A DNA stretch of 64,000 nt from an uncultured delta proteobacterium (GTDB taxonomy: Bacteria; Myxococcota_A; Polyangia; Polyangiales; Polyangiaceae), in contig CAVOKF010000004.1 in assembly GCA_963696385.1 (NCBI GenBank), positions 1,024,001-1,088,000 on the forward strand, in the 5' to 3' direction. The position numbers were made by a program, and so were the translations under genes. The notes under the pieces were generated by a model. The model made no database searches and was not told where the DNA came from. It worked only from the letters and a program-made list of their open reading frames with translations. Shown piece after piece: positions 13,537 through 59,289 of this stretch (its first letter is position 1; every line of letters begins with the position of its first letter).

Positions 13537-14346
13537 ATGCGATTCGCGCTGACGATGTCGTGTCTCTTCGTGGTCGCGTTGGCAAGCACACCGGCCAGCG
13601 CCAGCGACGTCCAAGTTGCCGTGGCCGCAAACTTCGATGCGCCGATGCAGCGCATCGCAAGCGAGTTCGAGAAAGAGTTGGGGCATCGTGTCCTGATCGT
13701 CACGGCCGCGACCGGCGCACTGTTCGCGCAAATCGAGAACGGCGCGCCATTCGAACTGCTGCTTGCGGCGGACGAAGCCACGCCGAGACGGCTCGAGTCC
13801 GACGGAAGGGCCGTCGCCGGGAGCCGCTTTACGTATGCGCTCGGCCGGTTGGTTCTGTGGAGCTCCCGCCCGGACTACGTAGACGGAAGCGGCGCGGTCC
13901 TTCGCGAAGGTCGCTTCGCGCACCTGGCCGTCGCCAACCCCGCCCTAGCCCCTTACGGCGCAGCGGCGTTCGAGGTTCTCCGAGCCCTGGGGCTGCTCGA
14001 CCCGCTGCGCGCGAAGCTCGTTCAGGGCGAAAGCATCGCCCAGACGGCCCAGTTCGTCGCGAGTGGCAGTGCGGAGCTCGGGTTCGTCGCATTGTCGCAG
14101 GTGGCCTCACAAGTGCAGGCGTCCGTCGGCAGCTACTGGCTCGTGCCTCAGCACCTGTACGCCCCGATTCGTCAGCAAGCCGTTCTTCTGCGCCCGGGCG
14201 CGAGCAATCCGGCTGCCCGGGCGCTCTTCGAGTACCTCCGGAGCGCCGCGGCGAAAACCGTCATTCGCGCGTTCGGCTACGGGCTGGAAGAGCCGGTGCC
14301 GACCGCGGGTGTCGAAGACGGCTCCAGTCCCAGCCCGAGGCTCTAG
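13537..14346 (+). CDS. modA: molybdate ABC transporter periplasmic protein
   Basis: signal peptide; VAVAANF, QIENGAPF, ANPALAPYG. Confidence 0.92.
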   Translation: MRFALTMSCLFVVALASTPASASDVQVAVAANFDAPMQRIASEFEKELGHRVLIVTAATGALFAQIENGAPFELLLAADEATPRRLESDGRAVAGSRFTYALGRLVLWSSRPDYVDGSGAVLREGRFAHLAVANPALAPYGAAAFEVLRALGLLDPLRAKLVQGESIAQTAQFVASGSAELGFVALSQVASQVQASVGSYWLVPQHLYAPIRQQAVLLRPGASNPAARALFEYLRSAAAKTVIRAFGYGLEEPVPTAGVEDGSSPSPRL

Positions 14347-14353
14347 GATCCGC

Positions 14354-15028
14354 GTGCCGAGCGACACCGATCTCGCAGCCGTCCTCGTCACGCTGAAGCT
14401 CGCGACGACCACCACGTTCGTCCTGCTCCTCATCGGGACCCCCATCGCGTGGTGGCTTGCCCGGTCGACGTCGCATTGGCGGGGGTCGATCGGCGCCGTC
14501 GTGGCTCTTCCGCTGGTGCTGCCTCCGACGGTCCTCGGCTTCTACCTTCTCGTTTTGCTGGGGCCGAACGGACCGGCGGGTCGGCTCACGCAAGCCATCG
14601 GGATGGGCACGCTGCCATTTACGTTCGGGGGGCTCGTCGTGTCCTCGACCGTGGCATCGCTGCCATTCGTCGTGCAACCCTTGCAGAACGCATTCGAAGC
14701 CCTGGGAGCTACGCCGCTCGAGATCGCCGCGACTCTCGGCGCGGGTCCTTGGGACCGTTTCTTCACGGTGGCCGTTCCCTTGGCGCGGCCGGGGTTCCTC
14801 GTGGCCTCGGTGTTGGGATTCGCACACACCGTCGGCGAGTTCGGCGTGGTGCTGATGATGGGCGGCAACGTTCCGGGCAAGACGCGCGTGCTCTCGGTCG
14901 CGCTCTACGACCACGTCGAGGCGATGGAGTACCCTGACGCTCACCGACTCGCGGGCGTCCTCGTCGCTTTCTCCTTTGCGCTGCTCGTCGCCCTCTACTC
15001 CCTTCGTGCTCCCGCCAAGCTCGTGTAG
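14354..15028 (+). CDS. modB: molybdate ABC transporter permease
   Basis: LPLVLPPTVLGFYLL; FAHTVGEFGVVLM. Confidence 0.92.
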   Translation: MPSDTDLAAVLVTLKLATTTTFVLLLIGTPIAWWLARSTSHWRGSIGAVVALPLVLPPTVLGFYLLVLLGPNGPAGRLTQAIGMGTLPFTFGGLVVSSTVASLPFVVQPLQNAFEALGATPLEIAATLGAGPWDRFFTVAVPLARPGFLVASVLGFAHTVGEFGVVLMMGGNVPGKTRVLSVALYDHVEAMEYPDAHRLAGVLVAFSFALLVALYSLRAPAKLV

Positions 15029-15650
15029 TGCCGATCGAATTCGGGCGTCGCTTCGATTCGCCCGCGGCCGTTTTCAGCTCGGCGCCCAGCTGGACCTTTC
15101 CGGAAGGGAATCGCCGCGCTGTTTGGACCGTCCGGCTCGGGCAAGTCGACGTGCTTGCGCTTGCTCGCCGGACTCGATCGCGGAGTCGGCTCCGTCGAGG
15201 TTCTGGGCGAATGCTGGCAAGATGATTCGCACGGCATCTTCGTGCCCGTGCATCGCCGACCGCTCGGCTTCGCGTTCCAGGATCATGCCCTTTCTCGCAT
15301 GTGCGCGTAGCCTGCCATCTCGAATACGCGCGGGTTCGGGCGCGGGGCGGCTTTCTCTGGGTCGCACCCATCGAGCGCGCAGTCGGCTCCAAGGTCCGGG
15401 TGCGTGCGCGTGCAAGTGACATCAGCGTGGCGCTCGAAATGCCGGGGCCGTCGAGCATCCTGAACGTCCTGCCGTCCGGGTCATCGAAGTGAGCGATCGG
15501 GGGCCCCATCGCGTGTACGTTCGATTGAGCGTGGGCGACGGCGCCGTCCCCCTCGTCGCCCGCATCACGCGACGCTCCCAGGCGGAGCTCGGTTTGACCT
15601 CTGGGCTAGCGGTCGCGGCTCAGATCGCGAGCGTGTCGGTCGTGATCTGA
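15028..15650 (+). pseudogene. modC: decayed modC (frameshifts plus internal deletion)
   Basis: ALFGPSGSGKSTCLR in one frame; ASDISVALE..SSILNVL and ARITRRS TOBE parts in others; core ATPase missing. Confidence 0.8.
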
Positions 15651-15709
15651 AGTCGGAAGGGGGCGCAAAGGGAATCTATCGACGAAGTCGGCTTGGAGAT
15701 CCGGAGTCG

Positions 15710-15919
15710 TCATTCGACGCCGATGATGACGTCCGACGACTTCACGATCGCCTTCGCCGCCTTGCCGACGGCAATCCCGAGGTCGTCCACAGACTCGTTG
15801 GTGATGGACGCGGTGATGACGAAGCCCGGTGCCACTTCAATCTTGACGTGGGCGGTGGTGGCCCCGCGGGTAACGGCGACGACTTTGCCCGGCATGACGT
15901 TTCGCGCGGAGAGCTTCAT
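15710..15919 (-). CDS. mop: molbindin / TOBE (Mop) protein
   Basis: MKLSARN...ITASITNESVDDLG...AIVKSSDVIIG. Confidence 0.88.
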   Translation of the reverse strand: MKLSARNVMPGKVVAVTRGATTAHVKIEVAPGFVITASITNESVDDLGIAVGKAAKAIVKSSDVIIGVE

Positions 15920-15998
15920 GGAACCTCGGCCTTGTTCGTAGCACGTGACGAGCTTTCGGAGCCACGGATCACGGGCAACGGCGAGAAATTGGAGCACG

Positions 15999-16029
15999 AT
16001 GGTTCGCGAAACCCTCTTTCGCAAACCAT
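15999..16029. terminator. 13-bp-stem hairpin between iscS and mop
   Basis: ATGGTTCGCGAAA-CCCTC-TTTCGCAAACCAT (1 mismatch). Confidence 0.4.
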
Positions 16030-16073: not shown

Positions 16074-17297
16074 TCAATGAGCGGCCCACTGCACGCTATC
16101 GAGGTCGATTCCCTCTTTGTGCATCTCGTAGAGCGGCGAAAGCTCGCGAAGGCGCGTCACCTTTTCGACCACCAGGTCGGCGACGTAGTCGACCTCCTCT
16201 TGCGTGTTGAAGCGGCCGAGACCGAAGCGGATGCTCGAATGGGCGAGCTCGTCGCCAACCCCGAGTGAGCGCAATACGTAGCTCGGCTCGAGGCTCGAAG
16301 ATGTGCACGCCGAGCCGGAACTCACGGCGACATCTTTGATGGCCATCATCAGACCTTCGCCTTCCACGAACTTGAAGCTCAGGTTCAGGTTGCCGGGCAG
16401 CCGGTGCTCGATCGACCCGTTCACGTAGACCTCGTCCAGTCTCTCCGTCACACGCGCGTGGAGCCGGTCTCGAAGGCTTCGCACGCGCGCCGACTCGGTC
16501 TTGCCCTCGTGCACGAGAATGTCGCACGCTTTTCCGAAACCCACGATCAGAGGCACAGCCAGCGTCCCCGACCGCATGCCCCTCTCGTGACCGCCACCGT
16601 CCATTTCGGCGACGACACGGACGCGCGGTCGGTTCCGCCGCACATAAAGCGCCCCGACGCCCTTCGGGCCGTAGATCTTGTGCGCCGAAAGGGACGCGAG
16701 ATCGACGTTCATCTTCTGGACGTCGAATTCGACCTTGCCGATGCCTTGCACGGCGTCGGTATGGAACAGAACGCCGCGGTCGCGCGTGAGCCGTCCGATG
16801 GCTTCGAGCGGCTGAACCGTGCCGATTTCGTTGTTGGCGAGCATCACGCTCACGAGGATGGTCCGCGAGCCGATGGCACGCTTCACGTCATCCGGATCGA
16901 CGCGGCCTTCCTTGCCGACGTCCAGGTAAGTGACCTCGTAGCCCTTCTTTTCGAGGCGCTTGCACGTGTCGAGCACGGCCTTGTGCTCGATCACGGTCGT
17001 GATGATATGGTTGCCCTTGTCCTTGTAAAACTCGGCCACGCCCTTGATGGCCAGGTTGTCGCTCTCCGTAGCGCCACTCGTCAGGACAATCTCCTTGGCG
17101 TCGCAACCACCGATGACGCGCGCGATGCGGTGACGTGCGCTCTCGATAGCTTCCTCCGCCTCCCAGCCGAACTTGTGACTTTTGCTCGCGGCATTGCCGA
17201 ACTTGGTGGTGAAGTACGGCCACATTTCGTCGAGCACGCGCGGGTCGACCGGCGTCGTCGAGTGGTTGTCCATGAAAATGGGGAGGTTCAAGGCCAT
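16074..17297 (-). CDS. iscS: cysteine desulfurase IscS
   Basis: [19 protein letters not shown]-terminal SPLYEM...QWAAH typical of IscS. Confidence 0.93.
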
Positions 17298-17493: not shown

Positions 17494-18339
17494 TCATGGC
17501 CAACAGTCCTGGGGCGGCTCCGCCGAGCCCAGTGCGGCAAGGCGGATCCCCGCGGCCATTCGAACTTCCTGCTCGACGTCCTTGGCGAGGTGCCCTGCGA
17601 GTGCGCGGTCGGCGCGGCGGGCGACCTCCCAGCGAACCTCCCAAGCCGGGTCTTTTGCGAGGCGCCTCAGCAGAGCTGCACCGGCGCGCTCGGCGACGAG
17701 GCGACGCACGACCAGATCTTCGTCGCCGGCCAGCTGTTCGAGCAAGGCCGGCTGCACCCGGCGCGCAACCTCTTGCCGAACCTGGTCGTCTGGGTCGCCG
17801 GCCATCCGCGAGAGCCACTGGGGCGGCAGTCGCCGCGCGACCCAGGTTCGGACTCCGTAGTCGTCGTCGCAACAAAGGGCCGTCAGGAGACGTGGGGCGA
17901 GGCGCTGCGCAACCCGAATGCGCACCTCGCGATGCGGGTCCTTGGCCATGCGAACGAGCATTTTTTGAGGCAACCGCAGTGCGATCGATGCGCGCACGGT
18001 CTCGTCCGGATCGGTCATCAAGGCCGTGAGACGGAAGATCGTGGCGTGTCGCACAGAAATCGCCCGGACCTCGAAGTACGGGTGGCCGAGCCAAGCGTCG
18101 GCCGCGTCCGGATTCCAACGGAAGAATCGGTCCACCCGCCGCGCATAGCGATCCTGGACGCACGCGTGTCCGATCTGGCACGGCGCCCGATCGCGTTTGG
18201 ACGCGTGCGCGCATCGTGCACAGTCGACCGGTTGCCCCTCCCAGTCCACCGCCTCGGGCACGTCCCCTTGCGCGTCCGAGTCGACGGGCGGCCGCGTGGC
18301 GCCCCCTGAAGCTCTTCGCTTCATGGCCTCGCGCCTCAT
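17494..18339 (-). CDS. nif-associated 4Fe4S-binding leucine-rich variant (LRV) repeat protein, copy 1
   Basis: DW.GQPVDC..C.H...C..GHACVQDRYARRVDRFF; HPYFEVR; D.D..VR repeats; start uncertain. Confidence 0.85.
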   Translation of the reverse strand: MRREAMKRRASGGATRPPVDSDAQGDVPEAVDWEGQPVDCARCAHASKRDRAPCQIGHACVQDRYARRVDRFFRWNPDAADAWLGHPYFEVRAISVRHATIFRLTALMTDPDETVRASIALRLPQKMLVRMAKDPHREVRIRVAQRLAPRLLTALCCDDDYGVRTWVARRLPPQWLSRMAGDPDDQVRQEVARRVQPALLEQLAGDEDLVVRRLVAERAGAALLRRLAKDPAWEVRWEVARRADRALAGHLAKDVEQEVRMAAGIRLAALGSAEPPQDCWP

Positions 18340-18510
18340 CTGCCGCGTCAACGAAGTGGACTGAACGACGGCCGTACGCACACCGTCGCGCACGACATGG
18401 CTGCATTCGGGCTAGGGGACGGGATCGGGCGCGACATGAAAACCTTCGCTTCAGTCAGCTTTCGATCTGGCGCGGTCGGGGAGGCCAAAAGCTGCTTCTC
18501 CCAGAGGCTA

Positions 18511-18526: not shown

Positions 18527-18775
18527 CGCCTCTTCGAACCGCGCCGCGCCGGCCGGTTTCGCGGTGGACCACGCGCCGGTGCACTGCCAGGCTGCGTGGT
18601 CTTCGCACGAAGAAGGAACGAGCCCGTGTCGCCTTTGTCGAGTTCACAACAATGCCGTCCCCCCCAGGAGATTCGTCTCATGCCGTGACCTCCAGGCCAT
18701 GGCCCGGAAACACGGGACAGCGAGAGAGAGAGCCTGCTTGCCGACCGGTGCCATGGGGTGCTCTGGTGTGACGCC

Positions 18776-19255
18776 ATGAAGGGCGACCCACGCATCATCG
18801 ATTTGCTCAACGAGATCCTCACCGGAGAGCTGACGGCGATCAACCAGTACTTTCTGCACGGCAAAATGTGCCTCAATTGGGGTTACCAGCATCTGGGCAA
18901 GAAGATTTACGAGGAGTCCATCGACGAGATGAAGCACGCGAACAAGCTCGTGGAGCGGGTCCTCTTCCTCGACGGTCTGCCGAACCTGCAGAAGCTCGAC
19001 AGGCTGAACATCGGTCAGACGGTCATCGAAATCCTGAAGAACGATCTCACGTTCGAGCTGGGTACCGTGCCGCGCCTCAACAAGGGCATTCAGCTTTGCC
19101 GCGACGTGGGCGACAACGGGAGCGAGCACCTTTTAACCGGCATTCTGGTGGACTCGGAGGGACACGTCGACTGGCTCGAGTCGCAGCTCGAGCTCGTGAA
19201 GCAGGCGGGCGAGGCCCAGTATCTTGCCCAGCAGATTCGCGAATCGTCCTCCTGA
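18776..19255 (+). CDS. bfr: bacterioferritin
   Basis: MKGD...ELTAINQYFLH...ESIDEMKHA. Confidence 0.95.
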   Translation: MKGDPRIIDLLNEILTGELTAINQYFLHGKMCLNWGYQHLGKKIYEESIDEMKHANKLVERVLFLDGLPNLQKLDRLNIGQTVIEILKNDLTFELGTVPRLNKGIQLCRDVGDNGSEHLLTGILVDSEGHVDWLESQLELVKQAGEAQYLAQQIRESSS

Positions 19256-19367: not shown

Positions 19368-19386
19368 GAAAATGCTTTTCACTATC
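19368..19386. promoter_or_regulatory. Fur-box-like site upstream of bfd
   Basis: GAAAATGCTTTTCACTATC, 14/19 to the GATAATGATAATCATTATC consensus. Confidence 0.55.
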
Positions 19387-19399
19387 CTTATCGAGTAGC

Positions 19400-19606
19400 A
19401 TGTACGTCTGCGTTTGCCGGGCAGTCACCGCGTGTGAGCTCAGGGCTGCGATCGACCGCGGGGCCACAACGGTGAAGACGGTCATCGAGCGCTGCGGTGC
19501 GGGAGATGACTGCGGTGCCTGTCATGGCGTCATCGAAGACATGATCGACGCGGGCATGCGATGCCTCGATCGGCCGCTCGGGACCGGGCGTGCTCCTGCG
19601 GCTTAG
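19400..19606 (+). CDS. bfd: bacterioferritin-associated ferredoxin
   Basis: MYVCVCRAVT...CGAC. Confidence 0.88.
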   Translation: MYVCVCRAVTACELRAAIDRGATTVKTVIERCGAGDDCGACHGVIEDMIDAGMRCLDRPLGTGRAPAA

Positions 19607-19769: not shown

Positions 19770-20630
19770 TCAGGGCGTCGTCGCTATCGCGACCGTGCGA
19801 AGCTCCCCTTCGAGTGCGGGCTTGTGCGCGAAAATGGCCTCTACCACCGCAACCGCCAGTTCGCCATGGGAGGCTCCGGCGGTCGGAATCTGCTTCGCCT
19901 TCTCCGCCCGCGCAGGCGGTGCGAAGACGCTTTTGACAATGGTGGGCGAGCCGCGCAAGCCGCATTGGCCAAGATCAGCGATTCCGGCATCGACGGCACT
20001 CCACTTGACGACCTCGGCGCGCGCCGCGCGCAGGGCATCGCCAACCGTGCCTCGGCGGATTTCGTTCGTGCCCTCGAGCATCGTAATCAGGACCGGCAGG
20101 CGGCTCTGAAGCACCTGGGTGCCGCCTTCACCGCGACGCTGCACGCAGATGATGCCCGTCGAGCGGTCGAGGTCATCGATGCGCGAGACATAGGTGAGCT
20201 GGGTGAGCCCCAATCGCTTCGCGATCCCCGGCCCAACCTGCGCCGTGTCGCCGTCGATCGTCTGTTTGCCCGTGAACACAATCGACGGCGCTCCCCATGT
20301 CTCGGAGATCTTGCCGATGGCCGTCGCCAGAGCGTAGGTCGTCGCGAGCGTGTCCGAACCCGCGAACTGACGGTCGGTCAGAAGCACGGCACGGTCGGCG
20401 CCGAAGGTAAGCGCCTTGCGAAGCGCGTCCTCGGCCATCGCTGGACCCATGGTCAGGACGGTCACCTCTCCGCCAAGCCGGTCGCGGAGGACGAGGGCCT
20501 GCTCTAACGCAAAGAGATCGTAAGGGTTGATGATGGCCGGCACGCCCTGGCGCATGATGGTGTTGGTCACCGGATGCACGCGGATCTGAGCGCTGTCGGG
20601 GACTTGCTTCATGCACACGACGATTCGCAC
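19770..20630 (-). CDS. fixA: electron transfer flavoprotein beta FixA
   Basis: VVCMKQVPDSAQIRVHPVTNTIMRQGVP; GKQTIDGDTAQVGPG. Confidence 0.93.
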   Translation of the reverse strand: MRIVVCMKQVPDSAQIRVHPVTNTIMRQGVPAIINPYDLFALEQALVLRDRLGGEVTVLTMGPAMAEDALRKALTFGADRAVLLTDRQFAGSDTLATTYALATAIGKISETWGAPSIVFTGKQTIDGDTAQVGPGIAKRLGLTQLTYVSRIDDLDRSTGIICVQRRGEGGTQVLQSRLPVLITMLEGTNEIRRGTVGDALRAARAEVVKWSAVDAGIADLGQCGLRGSPTIVKSVFAPPARAEKAKQIPTAGASHGELAVAVVEAIFAHKPALEGELRTVAIATTP

Positions 20631-20632: not shown

Positions 20633-21943
20633 CTAGGCTCCCACCGCCGCGCGCACAGAGCGGGGGCCGATGACTTGCTTGTAGAACTCGAGGACCTCTG
20701 TGAGCCCGACGGGGTTCTTGGTAACGGCGGCTCTCGCACGAATCTGTTCGAGAACGAGAGCCACATCGCCCGGGGCGGCAACGACCCCCAACGAGCTCAG
20801 TGCGTGAGCGACCGCAGCGCGGCCCGAGTGCTTGCCGAGGACGATTCGGCGTGTTCGACCGAAGCGCTCGGGCCGCAGTGCCTCGTAGGACTGGGGGTCG
20901 CGCAGCAGGCCTGCGACATGAATGCCCGATTCGTGCGTGAAGGCGGCTGCCCCCACGATGGATTTGCCCTCCGGGATGGGGCGCCGTGCCGTCCGAGCGA
21001 CGAGCTCCGCCAACGCGGGCAGCTGATCGGTGCGAACGCGGGTCGTGCGGCCTGCGATTTCGTCGAGGGCCACAACGACCTCTTCGAGCGCGGCGTTGCC
21101 GGCCCGCTCGCCCAGCCCCAAGACACAAACGCTCACGTGGGTTGCGCCGCCCTGTACCGCGGCGAGCGTATTGGCGGTGGCCAAGCCCAGGTCGTCATGG
21201 CCGTGAAACTCAAGCTCCATGTCCGTCTCGCGGCAGAGACGGCGGAAAATGGAATACGCCTGGAACGGGTCGAGCACGCCGAGCGTGTCGGCGAAGCGAA
21301 ACCGGTGCGCCCCCGCGTCTTCCGCCGCCAGGACCACATCGCAGACGAAGTCGGAAGCGGCGCGGCTCGCGTCCTCGCCGCCCACCGAGACTTCGAAGCC
21401 GTGGTCGCGCGCGTAGCGGACCACGCGTCGAATTCGCGCGAGAACGTCGGCGTGCCTCTCTCCGAGCTTGGCCGCGATTTGGCGCTCGGAGACCGGCACC
21501 GATAGATGCACCCGGCGGAGGCCGGTATGCGTAGCCGCCTTGACGTCCGCCTCGGTCATACGGCACCACGCAATGGCCTGGGACCGATGGAGCGCCGTGC
21601 CAACCGCGGCGACGGCCTCGATTTCGGCGCGTCCCATGGCCGGAATCCCCGCTTCGATTTCTTCGACGCCGGCTTGCTCGAGGGCTCGCGCAATCGCCAC
21701 TTTCTCTTCGAGGTCGAACACGACTCCAGGCGCCTGCTCGCCATCACGTAGCGTGCTGTCGTTGACGACGACGAGCGGCGGCGCCATGCGCGAGACAAAC
21801 GATTGCACCCGATCGAGCGTGGCGGAGACGGCACTCGAGGATGCGCTCGTCGTTGGCTTGTCGGTGCGGCTTGCCCTTGTGCTGTCGGTCCGCGCGGCCT
21901 TGTCCTGCCGCTGGGTGGTCGGACGGTTCTTGCCGTGAATCAT
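20633..21943 (-). CDS. nifV: homocitrate synthase
   Basis: DSTLRDGEQAPG, HGHDDLG, THESGIH, LGKHSG; start uncertain. Confidence 0.92.
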   Translation of the reverse strand: MIHGKNRPTTQRQDKAARTDSTRASRTDKPTTSASSSAVSATLDRVQSFVSRMAPPLVVVNDSTLRDGEQAPGVVFDLEEKVAIARALEQAGVEEIEAGIPAMGRAEIEAVAAVGTALHRSQAIAWCRMTEADVKAATHTGLRRVHLSVPVSERQIAAKLGERHADVLARIRRVVRYARDHGFEVSVGGEDASRAASDFVCDVVLAAEDAGAHRFRFADTLGVLDPFQAYSIFRRLCRETDMELEFHGHDDLGLATANTLAAVQGGATHVSVCVLGLGERAGNAALEEVVVALDEIAGRTTRVRTDQLPALAELVARTARRPIPEGKSIVGAAAFTHESGIHVAGLLRDPQSYEALRPERFGRTRRIVLGKHSGRAAVAHALSSLGVVAAPGDVALVLEQIRARAAVTKNPVGLTEVLEFYKQVIGPRSVRAAVGA

Positions 21944-21978
21944 GGCGGTCGTTTCCTGTTCGGTATCGCCCCGGGTAA

Positions 21979-23286
<1,308 letters not shown>

Positions 23287-23388: not shown

Positions 23389-24900
23389 ATGGGCCTCGAA
23401 TACTCGAACGATATCGAATTGCACAAGCGCCTCATCGCTCAGGTCCTCGAGGCGTATCCGGACAAGCTGAAGAAGAAACGCCAGAAGCACCTCGGCGTCG
23501 CCGCACCGGGAGCCCCCGCGGTCGGCTCGGAGCCAGAAGCCGATGAAGCGCATGCGGGGGGAACCGAGTGCGACGTCAAGTCCAACATCAAGTCCGTACC
23601 CGGTGTGATGACGATTCGTGGCTGCGCGTACGCCGGCTCCAAGGGCGTCGTTTGGGGCCCCGTCAAAGACATGGTGCACATCAGCCACGGGCCGGTCGGC
23701 TGCGGGCAATACTCGTGGTCGCAGCGGCGCAATTACTACATCGGCACGACGGGCATAGACACGTTCGTCACCATGCAATTTACGTCCGACTTTCAGGAGA
23801 AAGACATCGTCTTCGGTGGCGACAAAAAGCTCGAGAAGATCATCGACGAGATCAACGTTCTCTTCCCGCTCAACAAAGGGATCACGATCCAATCGGAGTG
23901 CCCTATCGGCCTCATCGGCGACGACATCGAAGCGGTCTCCAAGAAGAAGAACAAGGAAACGGGCAAGACCATCGTTCCGGTTCGCTGCGAAGGGTTCCGC
24001 GGAGTCTCCCAGTCGCTCGGGCACCACATCGCCAACGACTCGATTCGCGATTGGGTCTTCGACAAGCGGCCCGTGGAGCACGAGTCGACGCCGTACGACG
24101 TCAACGTTATCGGCGACTACAATATCGGTGGCGACGCGTGGTCGTCGCGCATTTTGCTCGAGGAAATGGGGCTGCGCGTAGTGGGCAACTGGTCCGGAGA
24201 CGCGACGCTCAGCGAGATCGAGCGGGCGCCCAAGTCCAAGCTCAATCTTATCCACTGCTACCGGTCGATGAACTACATCTGCAGGCACATGGAAGAGAAG
24301 TACGGCATGCCCTGGATCGAGTACAACTTCTTCGGCCCTTCGCAGATTTCCGACTCGATCCGCCGTATCGCCAATCTCTTCGACGACAAGATCAAAGAAG
24401 GTGCCGAGCGGGTGATTGCGAAGTATCAGCCTCTGGTCGACAAGATCATCGCGCGGTACCGCCCGCGCCTCGAGGGCAAGCGGGTGATGCTCTACGTCGG
24501 CGGCCTCCGGCCGAGGCACGTCATCACCGCGTACGAAGACCTGGGTATGCAGATCATCGGCACCGGCTACGAGTTCGGGCACAACGACGACTACCAGCGT
24601 ACAGGCCATTACGCCAAAGAGGGCACGCTCATTTACGACGACGTCACAGCCTTCGAGCTCGAGAAGTTCATCGAGACGCTGCGGCCCGACCTCGTGGGCT
24701 CGGGAATCAAAGAGAAGTACCCCGTACAGAAGATGGGCATTCCGTTTCGGCAGATGCATTCATGGGACTACTCGGGTCCGTACCACGGATACGATGGCTT
24801 CGCGATCTTCGCGCGCGACATGGACCTTGCCATCAATAACCCCGTCTGGAACTACTTCAAGGCGCCGTGGAAGGCCAAGGTCGCCGCGGCCGCCGAGTGA
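23389..24900 (+). CDS. nifD: nitrogenase MoFe protein alpha chain
   Basis: RGCAYAG, HGPVGCG, HCYRS (Cys ligand), MHSWDY (His ligand), GYEF. Confidence 0.99.
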
Positions 24901-25109
24901 GTGCACTCGACTGACTTGTCTTCGCTTCGCAAGCGGGCCCCGCGGAAGCGGGGCGCCGGGGCCTCGTGAGCGCGCACAGTGGCTTGCCCGCGCGGCATGG
25001 CTCGCGCCGCCGCCACCCGTATCCCTCTGAAATCGATTGGACGACTCACGTGTAAGAAGGCGGTCGCGAAGGGCGACGCCCCGTTTCCAGGAAAGCCGAG
25101 GATTTGGTC

Positions 25110-26645: not shown

Positions 26646-26728
26646 CGCGGCCCTCCGGTGCCGTCTGATCGACGGGCGCCCGTGGATTGCCCTGGTCTGC
26701 TGCCGTTTTGCCCTTTGAGGAGGACCCT

Positions 26729-28199: not shown

Positions 28200-28203
28200 C
28201 GCC

Positions 28204-29604: not shown

Positions 29605-30067
29605 AGTCACCGAGAATGGTTGCGACGAGGAACCGGGGCCGAGACTCCGTATCGCCATTGCAAGCCGTGATGGGCAAGCGCTCAACGCGCACTTCGGATC
29701 GGCCGAGAAGTTCATGGTTTACGACGTGAGCCCCCGGAGCCACGCATTCGTCAAGACGATCGAGATGAGCCAGGTGTCGGACGAATCGGGCGATCACAAG
29801 GCCGAGAGCGAGGACAAAAACGAGCGTAAAATCGCGTCGCTTGCCGGGTGCAACATCGTGTTCGTCCTCGCCATCGGGGGTCCGGTCGCGGCCAAAGTCA
29901 TTGCGGCCAAGATTCATCCCATCAAGATTGCCGAGCCCGAATCCATCGATTCGGTGATTTCGAACGTTCAGAAACTCATCAAGGCGGATCCGCCGCCGTG
30001 GCTTCGCAAAGTGCTCGCGACGAACCCGTCGCGGTCGATGACATTCTTGGACGACGACGACGGATGA
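29579..30067 (+). CDS. nifX: NifX, copy 1
   Basis: IAIASRDGQALNAHFG; AIGGPVAAKV; PPPWLRK. Confidence 0.92.
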   Translation: MAMRLHSLEVTENGCDEEPGPRLRIAIASRDGQALNAHFGSAEKFMVYDVSPRSHAFVKTIEMSQVSDESGDHKAESEDKNERKIASLAGCNIVFVLAIGGPVAAKVIAAKIHPIKIAEPESIDSVISNVQKLIKADPPPWLRKVLATNPSRSMTFLDDDDG

Positions 30068-40075: not shown

Positions 40076-40118
40076 CTTCGTCTCTTCTCCGTTGGAACTC
40101 GGTTGCGGTCGCGGCCGG

Positions 40119-40713: not shown

Positions 40714-41778
<1,065 letters not shown>

Positions 41779-45559: not shown

Positions 45560-45856
45560 TCAACCAAACTTGAACATGACTCCGTAGCCGCCGCGAGGGT
45601 AGCTCCATTCGACCTCGCCGCTGGGACCGCAGAGGACGCGGCAGGTTCCGCATTCAAGGCATCCGTCGACGCTGATCTCCACTTGCCCGGCGTCGTTGAC
45701 GTCGTAACAGCCCGCGGGGCAGGCCTTGGTCAGCGAGAGAAGTGCCTTGGACGGCTTGGCGTGTGGCTTTACTTTGATGTGAGGCCGGGCTGCGTCGACC
45801 TGATAGCGGTTCTGGAAAAGCTTCTGCTCAATCTTGACCGGAGTTGTCATCGCCAT
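45560..45856 (-). CDS. fixX: ferredoxin-like FixX
   Basis: [30 protein letters not shown]. Confidence 0.93.
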
Positions 45857-48261: not shown

Positions 48262-48277
48262 GGGTGACGGGTGCTTG

Positions 48278-48293
48278 AGCAACGTTCGTTCCA
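48278..48293 (-). promoter_or_regulatory. sigma54 promoter for fixBCX-modC
   Basis: TGGAAC-gaacg-TTGCT; twin UAS at 48442-48457 and 48464-48479. Confidence 0.65.
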
Positions 48294-48527
48294 GCCCTGG
48301 CGTCAGGCCGACCCCGGTGAATTCCGCGGAGTGCCGAACCGTCCCCTTTTGCAGCCAAGCCCCGAGCCTCGTGAGGTTTCGGACCACGCGGGGTGCACCG
48401 GAGGGCCCTCGTCCGCTCAAGCGGTGGCCCGATCGCCGGATTGTTGGACACCGCACACGGTCTTGTCGATCATCCGACAACTCGCGTTTTGGGCGTCGCA
48501 TTCCCGGCCAAAGGCCCGGCTTTGCCC

Positions 48528-48543
48528 TGGTACGCGAGTTGCT
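48528..48543 (+). promoter_or_regulatory. sigma54 promoter for the SIR2-like gene
   Basis: TGGTAC-gcgag-TTGCT. Confidence 0.75.
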
Positions 48544-48654
48544 GGGTCGAGAGCGCGCCGCTCCATCCGCTTCCCGAAGGGGGCCAGGGGGCGCGCATGC
48601 GTGATGACGCGACTCGTGTTCCAAAGCCCCGCTTTCTCGAAAGGAAGAAAAGAC

Positions 48655-49545
48655 GTGACCCTAGCCGCCCCCACCGTGGAGCCGCTTTCCTGGACCGCGA
48701 TCGAGCCCCACCCGGACAGTTGGTTTCGGGAAGTCAGCGAGGGCCTACGCGCGGGAAGGTTGGCTCCGTATCTGGGTCCGGGAGTCATCGAACTTGCGCG
48801 CGCCTCCGTCCCATCGACGCAAGAGGCGCTCGCGGCGTTTTTGGGAGGCAAGGTCGCGCTGCCGCGCCGCGCGCGGGGTAACCTCGGGGCGGCCGCCCAA
48901 TACATCGAAAGCCACCGGCACAGGAGCGTGGTCGTTCAATTGATGGCGGAGGCCTTCGCCGTGCCGGTGTCGCCTCTTGCCATTCATCGGTACCTCGCCG
49001 AGCTGCCGCTGCCCCTCGTCGTCGACACCTGGTACGACGGCGCGATGCGCGCGGCCTTGGCGGGCCGGGCTAATTGGGGCGAAATTCAGGGCGTTCGCCG
49101 CTCGGGACTCGGCGGGGATCCGTACTACGCGACGTACGACGCAACCGGAGTGGCGTGCCCGATCGAGGTGGCAGACGGGTGGAAAACGGTTCTCTATAAG
49201 CCGCATGGTGCGAGCACGCCGGCGAAAAACTTCTTGGTCTCGGACTCGGACTACGTAGAAGTTTTGACCGAGATCGATATTCAGACCCCCATTCCTGAAG
49301 TGGTCAAGACGCGGCGTTCTCGCGTTGGCTTCGTGTTTCTCGGTTGTCGCCTCAACGACCAAACTTTGCGCTGCTACGCTCGTCAGCTGCTCAAGCGATC
49401 GGGCGAACGCCACTTCATCGTGATCGAGCCGGGTGTCGCAACCAGAAACGAGCGGCGTTTCATCAGCGAGCACGGCCTGATGGCGCTCGTGAGCCCGTTG
49501 GCCGCCGCCCTCGATCAGTTGACGGCCTTTCCGCGTGCGGCTTGA
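48655..49545 (+). CDS. nif-associated SIR2-like domain protein
   Basis: [35 protein letters not shown]. Confidence 0.8.
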
Positions 49546-49662
49546 CCCCTTGTCAGTTGATGACTGAGGCTTGGCTGGCTTGGACATGGGGGAGGCAACG
49601 CGACCCGGAATGGCCCTTGCTTGGGTAGCTCGCATGGTTCCGACTGCAACCGCCGGTATGCC

Positions 49663-50181
49663 ATGAAACTGAGCGCCGACGTTCGGCTGCCGTTTGGGCG
49701 TGAAACCGTATACGTCGCGTATCGCGACGAGATGGGCAAGGTGCTCGAATTTTTGCCGAGCGTTCGGGCCGTCGACCTGAAAGCGCGACGTGAGGACGCG
49801 TTGGGGGTGCATCTGGTCCGCGAGTGGCACGGAGGAGGGGAGGTTCCCGCCGCCGTTCGCGGGATCGTGACCGAGTCCATGCTTGCGTGGGACGACTACG
49901 CGACTTGGGACGCGACGTCGTACTCCTGTGACTGGCAGATCGAATCGCGCAGCTTCCCGGACGCTCTTCGCTGCCGCGGCCGCACGTCATTCGTCGACGA
50001 GGGCGCAGGACAAACTCTCCTTGCCCTCCGCGGCACTATCGAGGTGCAGGCCCGCAGGCTCCCTGGAGTCCCGCCATTTCTGGCGGTTTCCGTGGCTCGT
50101 TCGGTGGAGGAGTTCTTGGTGGACAAAATTGAATCGAACGTGCGGCACGCGGTCGGCTGGTTCGAGAGGAATCGACCATGA
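49663..50181 (+). CDS. DUF2505/SRPBCC-like protein
   Basis: VYVAYRD...W.GGGEVP...WDDYATWD; myxobacterial-style family. Confidence 0.55.
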   Translation: MKLSADVRLPFGRETVYVAYRDEMGKVLEFLPSVRAVDLKARREDALGVHLVREWHGGGEVPAAVRGIVTESMLAWDDYATWDATSYSCDWQIESRSFPDALRCRGRTSFVDEGAGQTLLALRGTIEVQARRLPGVPPFLAVSVARSVEEFLVDKIESNVRHAVGWFERNRP

Positions 50182-51182
50182 ACGCCCCGCCTCGCTCGAC
50201 CGGCTCCGGCGAGAGCCACGTTCTGCCGGTCCGTCTGCGGGAACTCCAATCGAAGTTTGAGGATCATGTCATCCTTGCGGTGCAAGGTTGGAATAAGCAC
50301 ATTGTCGACGAGACCCAACTCGAGGGCATGAGCGCGTACGCGAAGGCCGACGCCCGGGCCAAAGCCAGAGCGGAGGGCCTCGACGGATTCCTGCTCACGC
50401 TGGACTCTGCGAGTTACGATGCCGTGATGCGGGGCGCTGACGACCGCGCGCTCCGGCACGAAATGTACGAGGCCTATGCGACCCGCGCCTCCGATCGCGG
50501 ACCCCGGGCCTACCGGTTCGACAACGGCCCGATCATCGAGAACATCTTGGCCTTCCGTCACCAGGAGGCCACCCGGCTCGGCTTTCCGAACTATGCGGAG
50601 TGGTTGCTGCAAACGGAGGTGGGCGGGACGGCAGACGACGTGGAGCGCCTTCTGCTCGAGCTCAATGCGAAGGTGCGCGGGCGTGCCCAGGCCGAGCTAC
50701 ACGAGGTGTGGGCGTTCGCCAAGGCGGAGCACGGATTGAAGGGATTTCGCCCCTGGGATCTTCGGTATTACACAGAAAGGCTGGAACGAACGAAGCACGG
50801 TGTCGCTGACGTTCAGACAGGTGAATCGTTGCCCGGCACGATCCGCGGGCAGCCGATCTCCGGCGGCTCGTGCGATGTCGCGCTGACGCGGCTTTATGAG
50901 ATCGAAGCGGCGCTCTTCGATCTGCGAGTGCACCGCGACTATGTCCCCGCCGAGAAGGCATCTCGGCTACGCTCGCACGTCTTGGACACGCTGGCCCAGG
51001 CCCGTCGAGAGGTTAGCCTGCTGCCGCCGCCCCCGTGGGACCGGTTCGCCAGTAGCTTCGGGGTCGGCTTTGGCAACCGCTCGGCGCCCACCTGGGTCAT
51101 GGGCCTTTTTCTGCAATCCGGGCACGCCGACGATCCCGTCGGACGATTTAACGAGGGCGCTGGCGGGCTTACCAATGGCTAG
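50178..51182 (+). CDS. M3 oligopeptidase A-like protein with large internal deletion (no HExxH)
   Basis: LRHEMYEAYATRAS..DNGP, LGFPNYAE, PWDLRYY, FDLRVH; metalloprotease motif absent. Confidence 0.65.
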   Translation: MNAPPRSTGSGESHVLPVRLRELQSKFEDHVILAVQGWNKHIVDETQLEGMSAYAKADARAKARAEGLDGFLLTLDSASYDAVMRGADDRALRHEMYEAYATRASDRGPRAYRFDNGPIIENILAFRHQEATRLGFPNYAEWLLQTEVGGTADDVERLLLELNAKVRGRAQAELHEVWAFAKAEHGLKGFRPWDLRYYTERLERTKHGVADVQTGESLPGTIRGQPISGGSCDVALTRLYEIEAALFDLRVHRDYVPAEKASRLRSHVLDTLAQARREVSLLPPPPWDRFASSFGVGFGNRSAPTWVMGLFLQSGHADDPVGRFNEGAGGLTNG

Positions 51183-55999: not shown

Positions 56000-56129
56000 A
56001 GGTAGTCTTCGCACGCTTTTCAGTTATGGGCCGATTTTTACTCGGCGGACGATTGCGAGGCGGCCCAGCGGGTGTAACGTGATTGGGTGACACGGAAACG
56101 GCAACCGTGGAACTGAGCGCAGCCGATTG

Positions 56130-57923
56130 ATGCGATCCTCGACCCTTTCGCCCGTTCCTTCCTATTCGGATGGCGAAGCCGTGCCGGATTCCGATGAGCG
56201 AGCTGAGCCCGGCTCTGCGAACTCGGAGATCGCGCTCTACGGTGTCTATGAGATCTCCAAAGTGCTCAACGAGCCAGGACGCCTGGAGGTCACACTCGGA
56301 AAGGTGGTCCATCTGCTGTCGAGCTTTCTCGACATGCGACATGGCTTGATCGCTCTTCTCGGGGAGCGCGGCGATCCGGAGATTGTCGTGGGAAGCGGAT
56401 GGAGCGAGGCCACGGCAAAGCGGTATTTCGATCGCCTGCCCGAGCGCGCCATCGGACAGATTGTCGTCACGCAGATGCCTCTCGTCGTCCCCAACATGAG
56501 GGACGAGGCGCTCTTCGAAGGGTGGGACTTCTCGGGCGACCGGGATGTGGCCGGCGACATTGCGTTCATCGGGGTCCCCATCAAGGACCGGGGAGAGGTG
56601 GTGGGGACGCTCACGATCGATCGAGAACTGGGGCCGCAGCGAGCCGTCCCGCTCGATGACGATGTGCGTTTCCTCGCGATGGTCGCGAACCTCGTCGGGC
56701 AGACGGTTCGCCTCCAGCGTATGATTGCTCGCGATCGCGAACGGCTCATGGTCGAGCGAGCGCGTCTCGAGAAGAGCGTCGAGCGGAAGACGTCGCCGGA
56801 CGAGAGCCACGCGCTCGGCGACATTTTCGGTGGGAGCAAGGCTCTCCATGCCGTCGTCGAGAAGGTGCGCATCGTTGCCCGGAGCAACTCGACGGTTCTT
56901 TTGCGAGGCGAGTCCGGCACGGGCAAGGAACTCTTCGCTCGCGCCGTCCACGATCTGTCGCCACGCCGCGATCGGGCGTTCGTGTCGGTCAACTGCGCCG
57001 CGTTGCCTGAGGCCGTGCTCGAGTCCGAGCTTTTCGGGCACGAGAAGGGAGCGTTTACGGGGGCGGCTTCGCAGCGCAAGGGGCGCTTCGAACTCGCCGA
57101 CGGCGGCACGTTGTTTTTGGACGAGATCGGAGAGATCTCACCTGCTTTTCAGGCCAAACTCCTTCGGGTGCTCCAAGAGGGGGAATTCGAGCGCGTCGGA
57201 GGGACGACGACGCTGAAAGTCAACGTGCGCCTCGTCGCGGCCACCAATCGCAATCTCGAGGAAGCGGTAAGTCAGCGCGAGTTTCGCGCCGACCTCTACT
57301 ACCGGATCAGCGTCGTGCCCATCTTCCTGCCGCCGCTGAGGGACCGGCCCAGCGATATCCCGCCGCTCGCCGAAGAATTTCTTCGGCGGTTCAACGAGGA
57401 GCACGCCACGGGACTCACCCTCGGGGCCGGTGCGATTTCCGTGCTCACGTCGTGTTCGTTTCCCGGCAACGTGCGTGAGCTCGAGAACTGCGTGCGTCGC
57501 ACCGCAACGCTCGCGGCAGGAACCACCCTGGTCGCGGACGACTTCGCCTGCAAGCACGACGAGTGCTTGTCGGCCGTCCTGTGGAAAAAGCCGATGCAGC
57601 CGCCCGACGTCGGCTTTGTCCCGTTGCCGATTACTCGTGCGCGAAGCGTTGCGCACGGCAGCGTGTCCGCGCCGGCGGGCCCGGGCTGCCAACCATCCGC
57701 CTCACCTGAGGGTGAATCCGAATCCGTCACGATCTCGCTGTCAGGGTCGGATCGTCCGGCGCCGGTCGCCCAGGGGGCCAACAAGAGCGATCGAGATCGA
57801 CTCATCGAGGCCATGGAATCCGCAGGCTGGGTTCAAGCGAAGGCGGCGCGTCTTCTTGGAATCAGTCCGCGACAGATCGGCTATGCGCTGCGCAAGTACG
57901 ACATCGAAATCAAGAGGTTTTGA
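56130..57923 (+). CDS. nifA: nif-specific sigma54 activator NifA
   Basis: GAF domain, [16 protein letters not shown]11-C-X19-C-X4-[12 protein letters not shown]...RQIGYAL. Confidence 0.97.
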
Positions 57924-57967
57924 AAGCCACGCGCAGCGATGCCTACGCGTGTCTCGTCAGCAAGCCC

Positions 57968-58720
57968 TCAAGACTCGAGCGACGTCACGCGATACTCGAC
58001 CGCGTCGTCGAAAATGCGTGTTCCGCCGCCTTCGGCGACGATTTGCATGAGCCTCTCGGGATCTCGGACGACGACCCCGGCGAGGTAATTCACGCCGAAA
58101 TCCGACCATTCGGACATCCAAGGAACGCTCGGACCGAGAAGCACCACAGTGGCTTTTCGGCTGAGATCCAGCAGGCGCGGCATGGTTTTGTTCGCGATCG
58201 CGCTTGCCGTCACAAAGACCCAGTCCGCCTTCGGAAGTACGGTTTCAGCCGCCGTGTCCGGCAGCGTGCCGGGGGTCGCGCGCCGTTCGATGCAGATGTA
58301 CCGGAATCCCGCCCACAGCATATCGAGGCCTGGATAGCGCCCGATGACCACGACCTCGGCGCCGTCCAGTCGGGGAGCGAAGTGCGCGAACACGCGCAAG
58401 TGAGCGGGCGCTTGCGCGACGATGGCTTGCGACCGCGCCATGCAACGATTGTCCGGGTCGTTGACCACGGCATTGATCGCGGCGCAGCCGACGGCCGCTT
58501 CGCAGGGATCGAAGCTTCGAACCCAAGGAGCGACTTCGGCGACCGGGCGACCGGCGAGCGTTCCAGGGAATGCGAGGGTCCGCGGCGGATCGACGGGGCT
58601 AAAGCAGAGGCCCGATTCGCGTACTTCGGCCACGCTCCAGTTCAAGCCGAGGAGCACGCGTCGGAGCGGCTGGGTAGAGCGCGCTCGGTCGACGAGCAGG
58701 TCGTAAAGGTCCCAAGGCAC
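57968..58720 (-). CDS. DUF364 / Rossmann-like putative metal-chelation protein
   Basis: AAVGCAAINA, VVVIGRYP, VTASAIANKT, LLGPS.P. Confidence 0.75.
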   Translation of the reverse strand: MPWDLYDLLVDRARSTQPLRRVLLGLNWSVAEVRESGLCFSPVDPPRTLAFPGTLAGRPVAEVAPWVRSFDPCEAAVGCAAINAVVNDPDNRCMARSQAIVAQAPAHLRVFAHFAPRLDGAEVVVIGRYPGLDMLWAGFRYICIERRATPGTLPDTAAETVLPKADWVFVTASAIANKTMPRLLDLSRKATVVLLGPSVPWMSEWSDFGVNYLAGVVVRDPERLMQIVAEGGGTRIFDDAVEYRVTSLES

Positions 58721-58724
58721 CGAC

Positions 58725-59289
58725 TCAGCCCACTCGTGCGCTCACGCGGTCGCCCCCCCTCGCGATCTCGCCCCACCAGTTTTTGAGAACCCAGAGATGG
58801 GCGTCGAGCATCGTTGCCATTCCGTCGCGCAAGGATAGCCAGTTGTGGACCATCCCGCGAGGCACGGCGGTCAGGACCGGGCAGCCACTGAATGTGGCCC
58901 GTGCCAGCTCCCGTCTGAGCCCGTGTCCACGTCCTTCCTCTTTACCGAAGCGTGAGACGAAAATGAGAATCCGCGTCGGAGTCAATCGCGGCTCGAATTC
59001 GGCCGGCCGCGTGCCGGAGCGCAGTCGGGTTCAGCGCACAGTCCTCCGCCCCCCGTCCGAGGTCTCGACAAATCGAGAACGTCTCGCCCGTGGCGACGTC
59101 GCGCAACATCCTCGGCGCGTTGGGCCCGCATCCCGGGCTGCCCCGCGGAAGCTGAATGACTCCCCCCAATCGAACGCCTTCGGTCGCAAGGTCACGTGCG
59201 AATACGAGCAGGAGCTCGTCCACCGCGACGCCCACGTCGTAAACCACGGCGGCGAGCTTACGCGGGTCCATCGTCACTGCGTCGTCCAT
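58725..59289 (-). pseudogene. DUF2478 family protein, frameshifted near 58970
   Basis: DLGRGAEDCALNP in one frame; SRFGKEEGRGHGLR...PVLTAV in another. Confidence 0.7.

Follow-up and report, generated by a model that had tools for sequence, protein, structure and literature searches.

The DNA analysed here, the window, is a stretch of 64,000 nucleotides (G000:C4:1024001-1088000) from a Polyangiaceae genome and carries a complete and, judged by its genes, apparently working nitrogen-fixation gene set. We are confident that this set is a chromosomal NifA/sigma-54 regulon for a Mo-nitrogenase of the aerobe-associated proteobacterial type in a Polyangiaceae host, in which the nif and fix genes are alphaproteobacterial, the isc genes are a duplicate of a host operon and the interrupted nifE is most likely an assembly error. 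The source genome comprises 6.94 Mb in 8 contigs with 65-66% G+C and is rated 96% complete with 2.8% contamination.

Pfam and NCBIfam profile scans of candidate open reading frames (ORFs; 110 + 57 against Pfam, 54 + 7 against NCBIfam), combined with direct translation, revealed an uninterrupted run of nitrogen-fixation genes from modA (13537) to DUF2478 (59445). The structural proteins are of the Mo type, all scoring above the cut-offs of TIGR01287, TIGR01282 and TIGR01286 (450, 856 and 859 bits), while the Vnf and Anf models score far lower on NifH, NifD and NifK. The FeMo-co assembly set is complete with NifB, NifE, NifN, NifV, NifQ and NifX, nifE being frameshifted in the assembly. All parts of FixABCX are present as ETF beta, ETF alpha, an ETF-QO-like FixC and a ferredoxin-like FixX, with fixA located apart from fixBCX. 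The fixB gene matches PF01012 and PF00766; fixC (NF007450, NF007542) and fixX (NF011993) give full-length matches that stay below the cut-offs of those models. Two copies of nifH are present, at 22378-23287 and 40870-41779; the 910 bp over which they match at 99.45% identity coincide exactly with the coding region. An earlier note, made from the letters of this DNA alone, had named the same gene classes and quoted peptides for NifH and for the start of HscA; every class was found where the note had placed it, and the peptides are present in the translations. The second nifH, the separate position of fixA and the nifE frameshift go beyond that note. Its span of 13537-59289 holds at the left end, modA, while the right border lies slightly beyond it, between the end of DUF2478 (59445) and the start of an HTH/PBP gene (59866). 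The left border is placed by gene content alone because no conserved left flank was found in congeners.

The same 1.17-Mb contig bears one 16S gene, 372 kb upstream of the window. Compared in full length, it shares 91% identity with the four copies of Sorangium sp. So ce513; its identity to the Bradyrhizobium betae gene is 76%. RpoB, a 1420-residue open frame without stops, matches that of Sorangium at 83% identity, against 58-62% for two Acetobacterales, Bradyrhizobium and Derxia. Two genomes of the 'same family' as the window's, G208 and G341, recur at the same contig places in the sample of 61 genomes from the family of Sorangium, and the host is therefore placed within the family that holds Sorangium, named Polyangiaceae at NCBI. 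The 31 species genomes of the host's genus range from 4.8 to 8.9 Mb, and the genus tallies below include the unpublished G010 and G047, both without NifD. The Polyangiaceae-like host proposed in the earlier note is thus borne out, and by these markers the genome does not classify as proteobacterial.

A scan of named genomes matched at least 600 stretches, at least 573 of which encode a NifD relative; the best 80 were kept for comparison. Among these 80 the nearest NifD is that of Sorangium sp. So ce513 (88%), followed by an uncultured bin (86%), Roseomonas acroporae (85%), Gluconacetobacter azotocaptans (84%) and a Hyphomicrobiaceae bin (84%); rhizobia (79-82%) and Bradyrhizobium, methanotrophs and Betaproteobacteria (74-77%) are further off. 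A first, quick tree of NifD alone (90 rows) placed the myxobacterial rows next to an alphaproteobacterial group without resolving them. We also built a concatenated NifH, NifD, NifK and NifN tree (41 rows, 1754 columns, LG+G4, no mixture model) from the window, G008, G049, G004, G130, G265, G336, G208 and Sorangium together with 32 of the best 80 loci, 14 of the alphaproteobacterial group and 18 of another proteobacterial clade; G017, available with its NifH only, and the distant G341 and G370 were left out. Eight Polyangiales rows, Sorangium included, form one clade (support 100/99). Its sister is Roseomonas plus Gluconacetobacter (97/96), the Hyphomicrobiales join these two groups next (100/99), with a Rhodospirillaceae bin beyond them. 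Wherever the root is put outside the 22-row group, the myxobacterial clade stays nested in the Alphaproteobacteria. Since NifD reaches 85% identity with the same relatives whose RpoB is ~60% identical, the nitrogenase did not come by vertical descent. G208 sits on a long branch within the other proteobacterial clade and therefore represents a separate acquisition. The alphaproteobacterial type named in the earlier note is borne out, with NifHDKN nested in Alphaproteobacteria and not with the anaerobe type; HscA is host-like. The finding of such a nitrogenase in a myxobacterium stands as well; the case is not unique, as Sorangium sp. So ce513 and six further Polyangiales fall in the same clade.

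NifD was found in 5 of the 31 genomes of the genus (5 of 22 of good quality), in 3 of 61 sampled genomes of Sorangium's family, in 10 of 401 sampled from the order and in 2 of 401 sampled from the phylum. Eight of the ten bearers in the order have the window's type (74-95% identity) and two have a type at 42-43%. Nine 5-kb segments across the cluster rank from the 5th to the 86th percentile in tetranucleotide distance to the genome mean, and their G+C content is 63.1-65.7% against a genome mean of 65.8% (sd 1.9); by this host-like make-up the cluster genes have ameliorated. Together with the nesting of NifHDKN this agrees with the ameliorated horizontal transfer suggested in the earlier note. 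The nif and fix genes entered the Polyangiales from an alphaproteobacterium of a lineage nearest, in our sample, to the Acetobacterales; we read the entry as old and probably a single event. Their base composition has since become host-like, and most lineages have probably lost them.

Other nitrogenases occur in the same family. G208 (G208:C10:179051-180484) carries a different proteobacterial type with 74% identity in NifD and a long branch, and G341 (contig C226) and G370 (contig C2) carry a type with 42-43% identity (loci L122-L124). The family has thus gained nitrogenase at least three times, or has kept one type and gained two. In G130, from another family of the order, NifD (G130:C273:19659-21122, L121) holds one in-frame TGA.

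On its right, from ~59.9 kb, the cluster is followed by a block of ~8 kb common to the genus, including the nif-less G007, G009, G019 and G021, which encodes an HTH/PBP regulator, two secreted-looking proteins and one large ORF. The same core block borders nif in G008 and G049, which argues for inheritance within that subgroup. DUF2478 was matched beside the block in these two nif-bearing genomes and not in the fetched regions of the nif-less G007 and G009. The left flank (1-13500) is a mosaic, including Pirin and YD-shell fragments, and shares no conserved synteny with congeners, only scattered pieces and repeats. As the earlier note had observed for integrase and att site, the marks of a mobile nif island (integrase, tRNA attachment site, flanking repeats) are not seen: the window has no tRNA gene and no flanking direct repeat of at least 40 nt, and no integrase or transposase family was found among 167 scanned ORFs, those outside a filter on third-position G+C (GC3) not having been scanned.

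The isc genes of the cluster are of host origin. Cluster HscA is 69% identical to the HscA of Sorangium, which lies ~7 Mb from Sorangium nif, and 53% identical to that of Derxia; the three alphaproteobacterial genomes tested gave HscA matches at the DnaK level only (42-45%). A second isc operon lies on contig C5 of the source genome, and its genes are 81% (iscS), 90% (iscU), 58% (hscB), 76% (hscA) and 73% (fdx) identical to the cluster copies. The nif-bearing G008 and G049 have two HscA genes each; the nif-less G007 and G009 have one, as does G004. A tree of ten HscA rows with Sorangium as outgroup unites the three nif-linked copies in a clade (100/99) inside the genus, so the cluster isc set is a duplicate of the host operon and was not imported. 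This duplicate is linked to nif in the group of the window's genome, G008 and G049. In G008 it is still one operon, iscS-iscU-iscA-hscB-hscA-fdx, adjoining nifH, and in the window iscS is displaced by ~17 kb from the rest. The earlier note had taken HscA and IscS for flanking genes, which does not hold, as they lie inside the cluster.

NifA carries cysteines spaced C-X11-C-X19-C-X4-C between its AAA+ and HTH domains, the Cys motif that the earlier note had recognized and a mark of the oxygen-sensitive NifA of Alphaproteobacteria. None of the 82 TIGR02938 (NifL) matches in the genome reaches the cut-off, and rpoN is present (424 bits, above cut-off). For the NifA upstream activator sequence (UAS), TGT-N10-ACA, the window shows 15 sites where 4.8 ± 2.3 are expected; 0 of 100 shuffles have as many, and all 15 fall within 13162-54331. 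Nine operon fronts, those of nifH1, nifH2, nifB, fixB, LRV1-iscS, iscA-nifW, iscA2, the 54424 ferredoxin and the SIR2-like gene, combine a UAS with a GG-N10-GC site downstream of it that agrees with the consensus in 9-11 of 12 letters. The -24/-12 scan behind these pairs scored GG-N10-GC in operon-front regions without a shuffle control of its own; the strict sigma-54 pattern occurs once in the window. NifA, RpoN, the lack of NifL, and the UAS and promoters make up a predicted NifA/sigma-54 regulon of the oxygen-sensitive NifA class. As a separate observation, the G008 cluster (G008:C3, ~3069500-3082000, L087-L088) has three nifA-like genes, which match the window's NifA at 67% over the full length, at 81% over 410 residues and at 47%.

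The protein families present suggest how the cluster would work. At low fixed nitrogen and low oxygen, Cys-motif NifA would bind TGT-N10-ACA and open the -24/-12 promoters of nifH1DKENX, nifB, nifH2, fixBCX, the LRV-iscS and iscA-nifW units, and the globin, rubrerythrin and ferredoxin units. Electrons from NADH would pass through FixABCX to ferredoxin (FdxN), which would hand them to NifH. FeMo-co would be built by NifB, NifEN, NifX, NifV and NifQ with molybdate taken up via ModABC, and Fe-S clusters would be supplied by NifS and the dedicated IscS-IscU-IscA-HscBA-Fdx set. A cbb3 oxidase, whose subunit gene ccoN lies elsewhere in the genome (681 bits, above cut-off), may together with the cluster globin, rubrerythrins and bacterioferritin hold down oxygen and iron stress. 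From this gene content we infer an oxygen-tolerant diazotroph.

Some neighbours of these genes recur at other nif loci. The SIR2_2-like gene (48271-49545), preceded by a UAS pair and a -24/-12 site, belongs to a domain family better known from phage defence; such a gene adjoins nif in G008, in Sorangium and in 20 of 86 nif loci, including those of Roseomonas, Gluconacetobacter and Betaproteobacteria. LRV genes stand beside nif in 11 of the 86 loci and a globin in 10, mostly beta- and gammaproteobacterial. The SIR2_2-like, LRV and globin neighbours arrived together with nif.

Several observations weigh against this picture, and we discuss them together with the alternatives that they would favour. 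We hold it very unlikely, indeed scarcely credible, that the contig is a binning or assembly chimera in which an alphaproteobacterial nif cluster was joined to myxobacterial DNA, a danger that the earlier note had named. In its favour, NifH, NifD and NifK are 80-91% identical to alphaproteobacterial proteins, and the repeat-rich left flank lacks conserved synteny in any congener. However, the cluster lies inside the 1.17-Mb contig with its Polyangiales 16S gene, its right flank is the genus core block that nif also adjoins in G008 and G049, the complete chromosome of Sorangium sp. So ce513 carries the same type, the tetranucleotide make-up is ordinary for the host, and host-type isc paralogues lie inside the cluster. 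Highly improbable, too, is vertical descent of a type ancestral in Myxococcota that merely resembles the proteobacterial one. Host-like composition and a single Polyangiales clade would suit it, as would the NifD, NifK and NifN identities to Sorangium (88, 83 and 73%), which are of the same order as that of RpoB (83%). Yet the clade is nested in Alphaproteobacteria on branches starred in the tree, identity to Roseomonas is 85% for NifD against 62% for RpoB, NifD of any type occurs in only 2 and 10 of the 401 sampled members of phylum and order, and two genomes of the same family hold the 42-43% identical type.

More weight, although we still think it unlikely, goes to several transfers into or spread among the Polyangiales in place of one old entry followed by losses, or to a reverse passage from Polyangiales to Acetobacterales at the sister node. 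G208 did take a different proteobacterial type, the NifD of the congener G004 is 83% identical to the window's against 88% for Sorangium from another genus, the branching inside the Polyangiales clade is a polytomy, and the Sorangium cluster lies at another site without a linked isc set. These points are opposed by the 100/99 support of the eight-row clade and by an approximately unbiased (AU) test in which monophyly of the four congeners is not rejected (p 0.48). Given the polytomy and this test result, the trees do not separate one entry with many losses from a later spread among members of the order. As the Polyangiales clade stands beside the Acetobacterales pair and not inside it, the direction at that node rests on the wider alphaproteobacterial nesting; Hyphomicrobiales and the Rhodospirillaceae bin, lying outside Acetobacterales plus Polyangiales, favour passage from Alphaproteobacteria to Polyangiales. 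Naming the donor is limited by the sampling of 32 of the best 80 relatives under LG+G4 without a mixture model.

Very improbable, finally, is a decaying cluster that has lost its function, for which the assembly offers an extra base in nifE (27087), a DUF2478 gene split at ~58985-59030 (one frame in G008), a modC remnant and a truncated M3 peptidase fragment. In G008 and Sorangium nifE is in one frame. We compared contigs of public runs over 16001-36000 (X1 and X2, DNA from different studies; X7, RNA; X8, peat). The letter at 27087 is left out in X1 (2 contigs), X2 and X7, that is in 3 of 3 runs covering the site, X8 being without a contig there, and without it the nifE frame reads through (...KEIVTKYAPPAIFVYST...). 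X1 may be the window's source sample and is therefore not independent support on this letter. The frameshift is most likely an assembly error, or else a rare variant. Other single-letter differences from the run contigs lie at 17317 and 23310 (both intergenic) and at 34854, near the end of nifS, where contigs of X1 and X2 leave the letter out; with four such differences within 20 kb, other assembly frameshifts are not to be read as pseudogenes without reads. Two skip joins (X1, 22978 to 26454; X8, 21379 to 22188) were dismissed as noise with 20-21 letters on the shorter side. Decay is further opposed by the remaining nif/fix genes, which are all open with full-length scores, by the intact modC, by the retained pairs of UAS and promoter, and by RNA contigs of at least 95% identity over most of the compared stretch. 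Also to be set against the main reading are NifU, which was not found in full length in the window, where only an IscU-type N domain occurs (the rest of the genome was not searched for it), and cytochrome bd, which was not found in the 96% complete genome.

Listed public runs containing the stretch 22000-30000 number 20, three of them RNA libraries, and come from 14 soil, peat and wetland studies. Contigs from RNA libraries cover 29 of 30 bins at identities of at least 95% (49 of 75 at 99% or above to the window). Their summed depth is 832 in the nifH bin, 200-333 in nifD/nifK and 0-77 elsewhere; in the DNA run from that study it stays level at 27-54 apart from 124 in the nifH bin. Depth of contigs is no basis for ranking genes, RNA libraries can contain DNA, and bins with little or no RNA cover (LRV1, bfr, nifZ/T) are not readable as silence. 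The RNA-library contigs are a hint, not proof, of transcription in nature.

By their gene content, some myxobacteria are probably overlooked nitrogen fixers. We go further only tentatively, with somewhat more doubt than belief, in suggesting that Polyangiaceae may form a guild of aerobic or micro-aerobic nitrogen fixers, transcriptionally active and so far overlooked, in soil, wetland and peat, whose nif genes entered once from an Acetobacterales-like donor, gained a duplicate of the host's own ISC system and now yield nifH reads that are booked to Alphaproteobacteria. Relatives of this proposed guild are known cellulose degraders, and the stretch is nearly unchanged across runs of the 14 studies and in RNA libraries. 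Surveys of nifH place reads by the nearest cultured relative. NifH of the window is 88-91% identical to Gluconacetobacter, Roseomonas and rhizobial proteins and equally close to other Polyangiales, and such reads would therefore count as alphaproteobacterial. Should these myxobacteria indeed fix nitrogen, some of the nitrogen entering soils is being attributed to the wrong phylum. The cluster also illustrates the domestication of an imported pathway, which has taken on host composition and become linked to a duplicate of the host's isc operon. The cultured Sorangium sp. So ce513, with the same gene clade, makes the question of nitrogen fixation testable at the bench.

Table 1 Features of the nitrogen-fixation cluster, in window positions.
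Feature	Position	Strand	Evidence
modA, molybdate-binding protein, left end of cluster	13537..14346	+	TIGR01256 215 bits (> cut-off); PF13531
modB permease (ORF as listed; profile from ~residue 100)	14063..15028	+	TIGR02141 226 bits (> cut-off)
Decayed modC remnant, three frames	15029..15647	+	modC profile positions 40-86, 250-300, 310-352 of 353
Mop/TOBE molybdenum-pterin-binding protein	15710..16024	-	TIGR00638 69 bits
iscS paralogue, host-derived	16074..17297	-	TIGR02006 654 bits; 81% identical to C5 housekeeping iscS
LRV Fe-S protein 1	17494..18393	-	PF05484, PF01816; UAS 18636-18651 and -24/-12 at 18526 upstream
Bacterioferritin (bfr)	18758..19255	+	TIGR00754 214 bits
Bfd-like 2Fe-2S protein	19370..19606	+	PF04324
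fixA (ETF beta)	19770..20630	-	PF01012 E 5.6e-42; ETF-beta families
nifV, homocitrate synthase (ORF as listed; profile from residue 98)	20633..22063	-	TIGR02660 495 bits (> cut-off)
NifA UAS (22176-22191) and -24/-12 promoter (22266-22281) of nifH1DK	22176..22281	+	Site scans
nifH copy 1	22378..23286	+	TIGR01287 450 bits; translation
nifD	23389..24900	+	TIGR01282 856 bits
nifK	25104..26645	+	TIGR01286 859 bits
nifE, one extra base at 27087 in assembly	26669..28199	+	PF00148: N part 1-73, C part 69-395 in a different frame
nifN (ORF as listed; profile from residue 99)	27919..29604	+	TIGR01285 577 bits
nifX copy 1 (profile from residue 97)	29357..30067	+	TIGR02663 150 bits
UAS and -24/-12 promoter of nifB	30111..30182	+	Site scan
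nifB	30236..31840	+	TIGR01290 710 bits
LRV Fe-S protein 2	31830..32645	+	PF05484, PF01816
nifZ	32690..32977	+	PF04319 E 1.5e-29
nifT	32974..33195	+	TIGR02934 107 bits
HesB/IscA-like protein (start approximate)	33345..33671	+	PF01521 in frame 32880-33668
nifS	33598..34875	+	TIGR03402 587 bits (> cut-off)
fdx; hscA (host-derived isc paralogues)	34943-35308; 35308-37221	-	TIGR02007, TIGR01991
hscB; iscU (host-derived isc paralogues)	37307-37816; 38236-38793	-	hscB model, TIGR01999
NifX-family protein, DIMCO_N and FeMo-co-binding domains	38715..39458	-	PF16844, PF02579
2[4Fe-4S] ferredoxin, YfhL-like	39537..39731	-	NF033683
nifW	39743..40159	-	NF002009 135 bits
IscA-type Fe-S carrier	40119..40439	-	TIGR00049 116 bits
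UAS (40700-40715) and -24/-12 promoter (40803-40818) of nifH2	40700..40818	+	Site scans
nifH copy 2	40870..41778	+	TIGR01287 451 bits
nifX2; DUF269; Rop-like	42009-42488; 42514-42990; 43020-43229	+	Pfam/NCBIfam; Rop-like PF05082
fdxN, ferredoxin III; nifQ	43162-43539; 43588-44214	+	Pfam/NCBIfam; fdxN TIGR02936
Intact modC	44385..45485	-	TIGR02142 417 bits
fixX	45560..45856	-	Direct translation; NF011993 95/95 profile positions, 93 bits, below cut-off
fixC; fixB	45847-47151; 47167-~48258	-	Profiles; UAS pair 48442-48479, -24/-12 at 48293
SIR2_2-domain protein (start uncertain)	48271..49545	+	PF13289
Insert: ORF of no assigned family and truncated M3 peptidase fragment	49621..51182	+	Oligopeptidase A profile positions 157-353 of 680 only
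iscA-like (iscA2); truncated globin	51341-51748; 51502-52218	+	Profiles; UAS/-24/-12 at 51254/51312
Fer2-rubrerythrin fusion; second rubrerythrin-like gene; dodecin	52396-53304; to 53788; to 54115	+	Profiles
Thioredoxin-like 2Fe-2S ferredoxin	54424-54783	+	Profiles; UAS/-24/-12 at 54316/54402
YgfZ-like protein	54803-55795	+	Profiles
nifA: GAF, AAA+ and HTH_8 domains, Cys motif	56127..57923	+	TIGR01817 725 bits; sequence read
DUF364/DUF4213	57968-58720	-	Pfam
DUF2478, split in two frames, right end of cluster	58728-59445	-	Pfam; one frame in G008

The NifX-family protein at 38715..39458 presumably has a NafY/NifY-like build. The modC remnant adjoins modAB, and the intact modC lies 29 kb away beside fixX; in G008, modAB adjoin DUF2478 and the core block. 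These positions suggest that the cluster was rearranged around the molybdate-uptake locus. The insert between the SIR2-like gene and iscA2 was not seen at the same place in G008 or Sorangium, and its ORF of no assigned family has a 45% identical paralogue on C5. Left of the cluster, a repeat of ~320 bp at 1378-1696 has at least four further copies in the genome (C1, C2, C4, C8) at 96-97% identity and 99% identical pieces at contig ends of the congener G003, which is without NifD; it may be a small mobile element. The segment 7291-8205, including the Cys-rich ORF 7687-8175, is duplicated on C2 (96-97% in DNA, 93% in protein) and 96% identical in G003. A pair of Phd/YefM antitoxin and PIN toxin genes lies at 4553-5229; its two genes have counterparts of 71% and 53% identity in another such pair on C4.

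Mo-nitrogenase systems of this kind are textbook knowledge, and a close regulatory parallel is the NifA-FixABCX regulon of rhizobia and Bradyrhizobium, which we take to be of the oxygen-sensitive NifA class. The likeness extends to the NifA domains and Cys motif, the lack of NifL, TGT-N10-ACA with -24/-12 promoters, fixABCX and a duplicated nifH. In contrast to that regulon, fixA lies apart from fixBCX in the window, NifD is 77-81% identical, and the window has no tRNA gene, no flanking direct repeat and no integrase family among the scanned ORFs. The nitrogenases of G341 and G370, presumably of the anaerobe kind found in Anaeromyxobacter (our set holds no named Anaeromyxobacter sequence), come from the same phylum and family as the window's host, yet their NifD is 42-43% identical and a branch of 3.89 changes per column splits them from the window's type in the NifD tree. 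By its NifD, the window does not belong with this anaerobe-type Myxococcota nif.

One paper reports that 8 of 36 nifH-bearing soil bins are Polyangiales (PMC13479853, 2026); two others attribute nitrogenase to other taxa (PMC11613949, PMC13055281), and PMC6585233 has no bearing on the question. In the full-text library searched, no paper was found on the presence, origin or expression of an alphaproteobacterial-type cluster in Polyangiaceae or Sorangium, although one may exist in print, and none that combines Sorangium with nifHDK.

The nif genes of the Acetobacterales Gluconacetobacter azotocaptans DSM 13594 and Roseomonas acroporae NAR14 are close to those of the window (NifD 84-85%, NifH 88-91%) and share the neighbours LRV, SIR2_2-like, nifZ, nifT, fdxN and nifB at 49-81%; they differ in belonging to another host phylum (RpoB 60-62%). 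The window's cluster has a host-type isc set, whereas the alphaproteobacterial genomes tested lack a true HscA. The nif cluster of Sorangium sp. So ce513 (NZ_CP150344, ~2.86-2.90 Mb, complete chromosome) resembles that of the window and belongs to the same Polyangiales Nif clade, with identities of 91% for NifH, 88% for NifD, 83% for NifK and 73% for NifN. It shares fixA, fixB, fixC, fixX, nifA, LRV, the SIR2_2-like gene, nifZ/T, DUF269, the Rop-like gene, fdxN, nifQ and modABC. It differs in lying at another chromosomal site without the window's core block nearby, in gene order, in having no linked hscA, hscB or iscS paralogues, and in giving one nifH match in the 120 kb examined. A public Sorangium genome with the same gene clade and passing mention of nifH-bearing Polyangiales are thus already known; the new points are that the Polyangiales rows form a single clade within Alphaproteobacteria, that the cluster's isc genes are a host-derived duplicate and that there is a hint of expression in nature.

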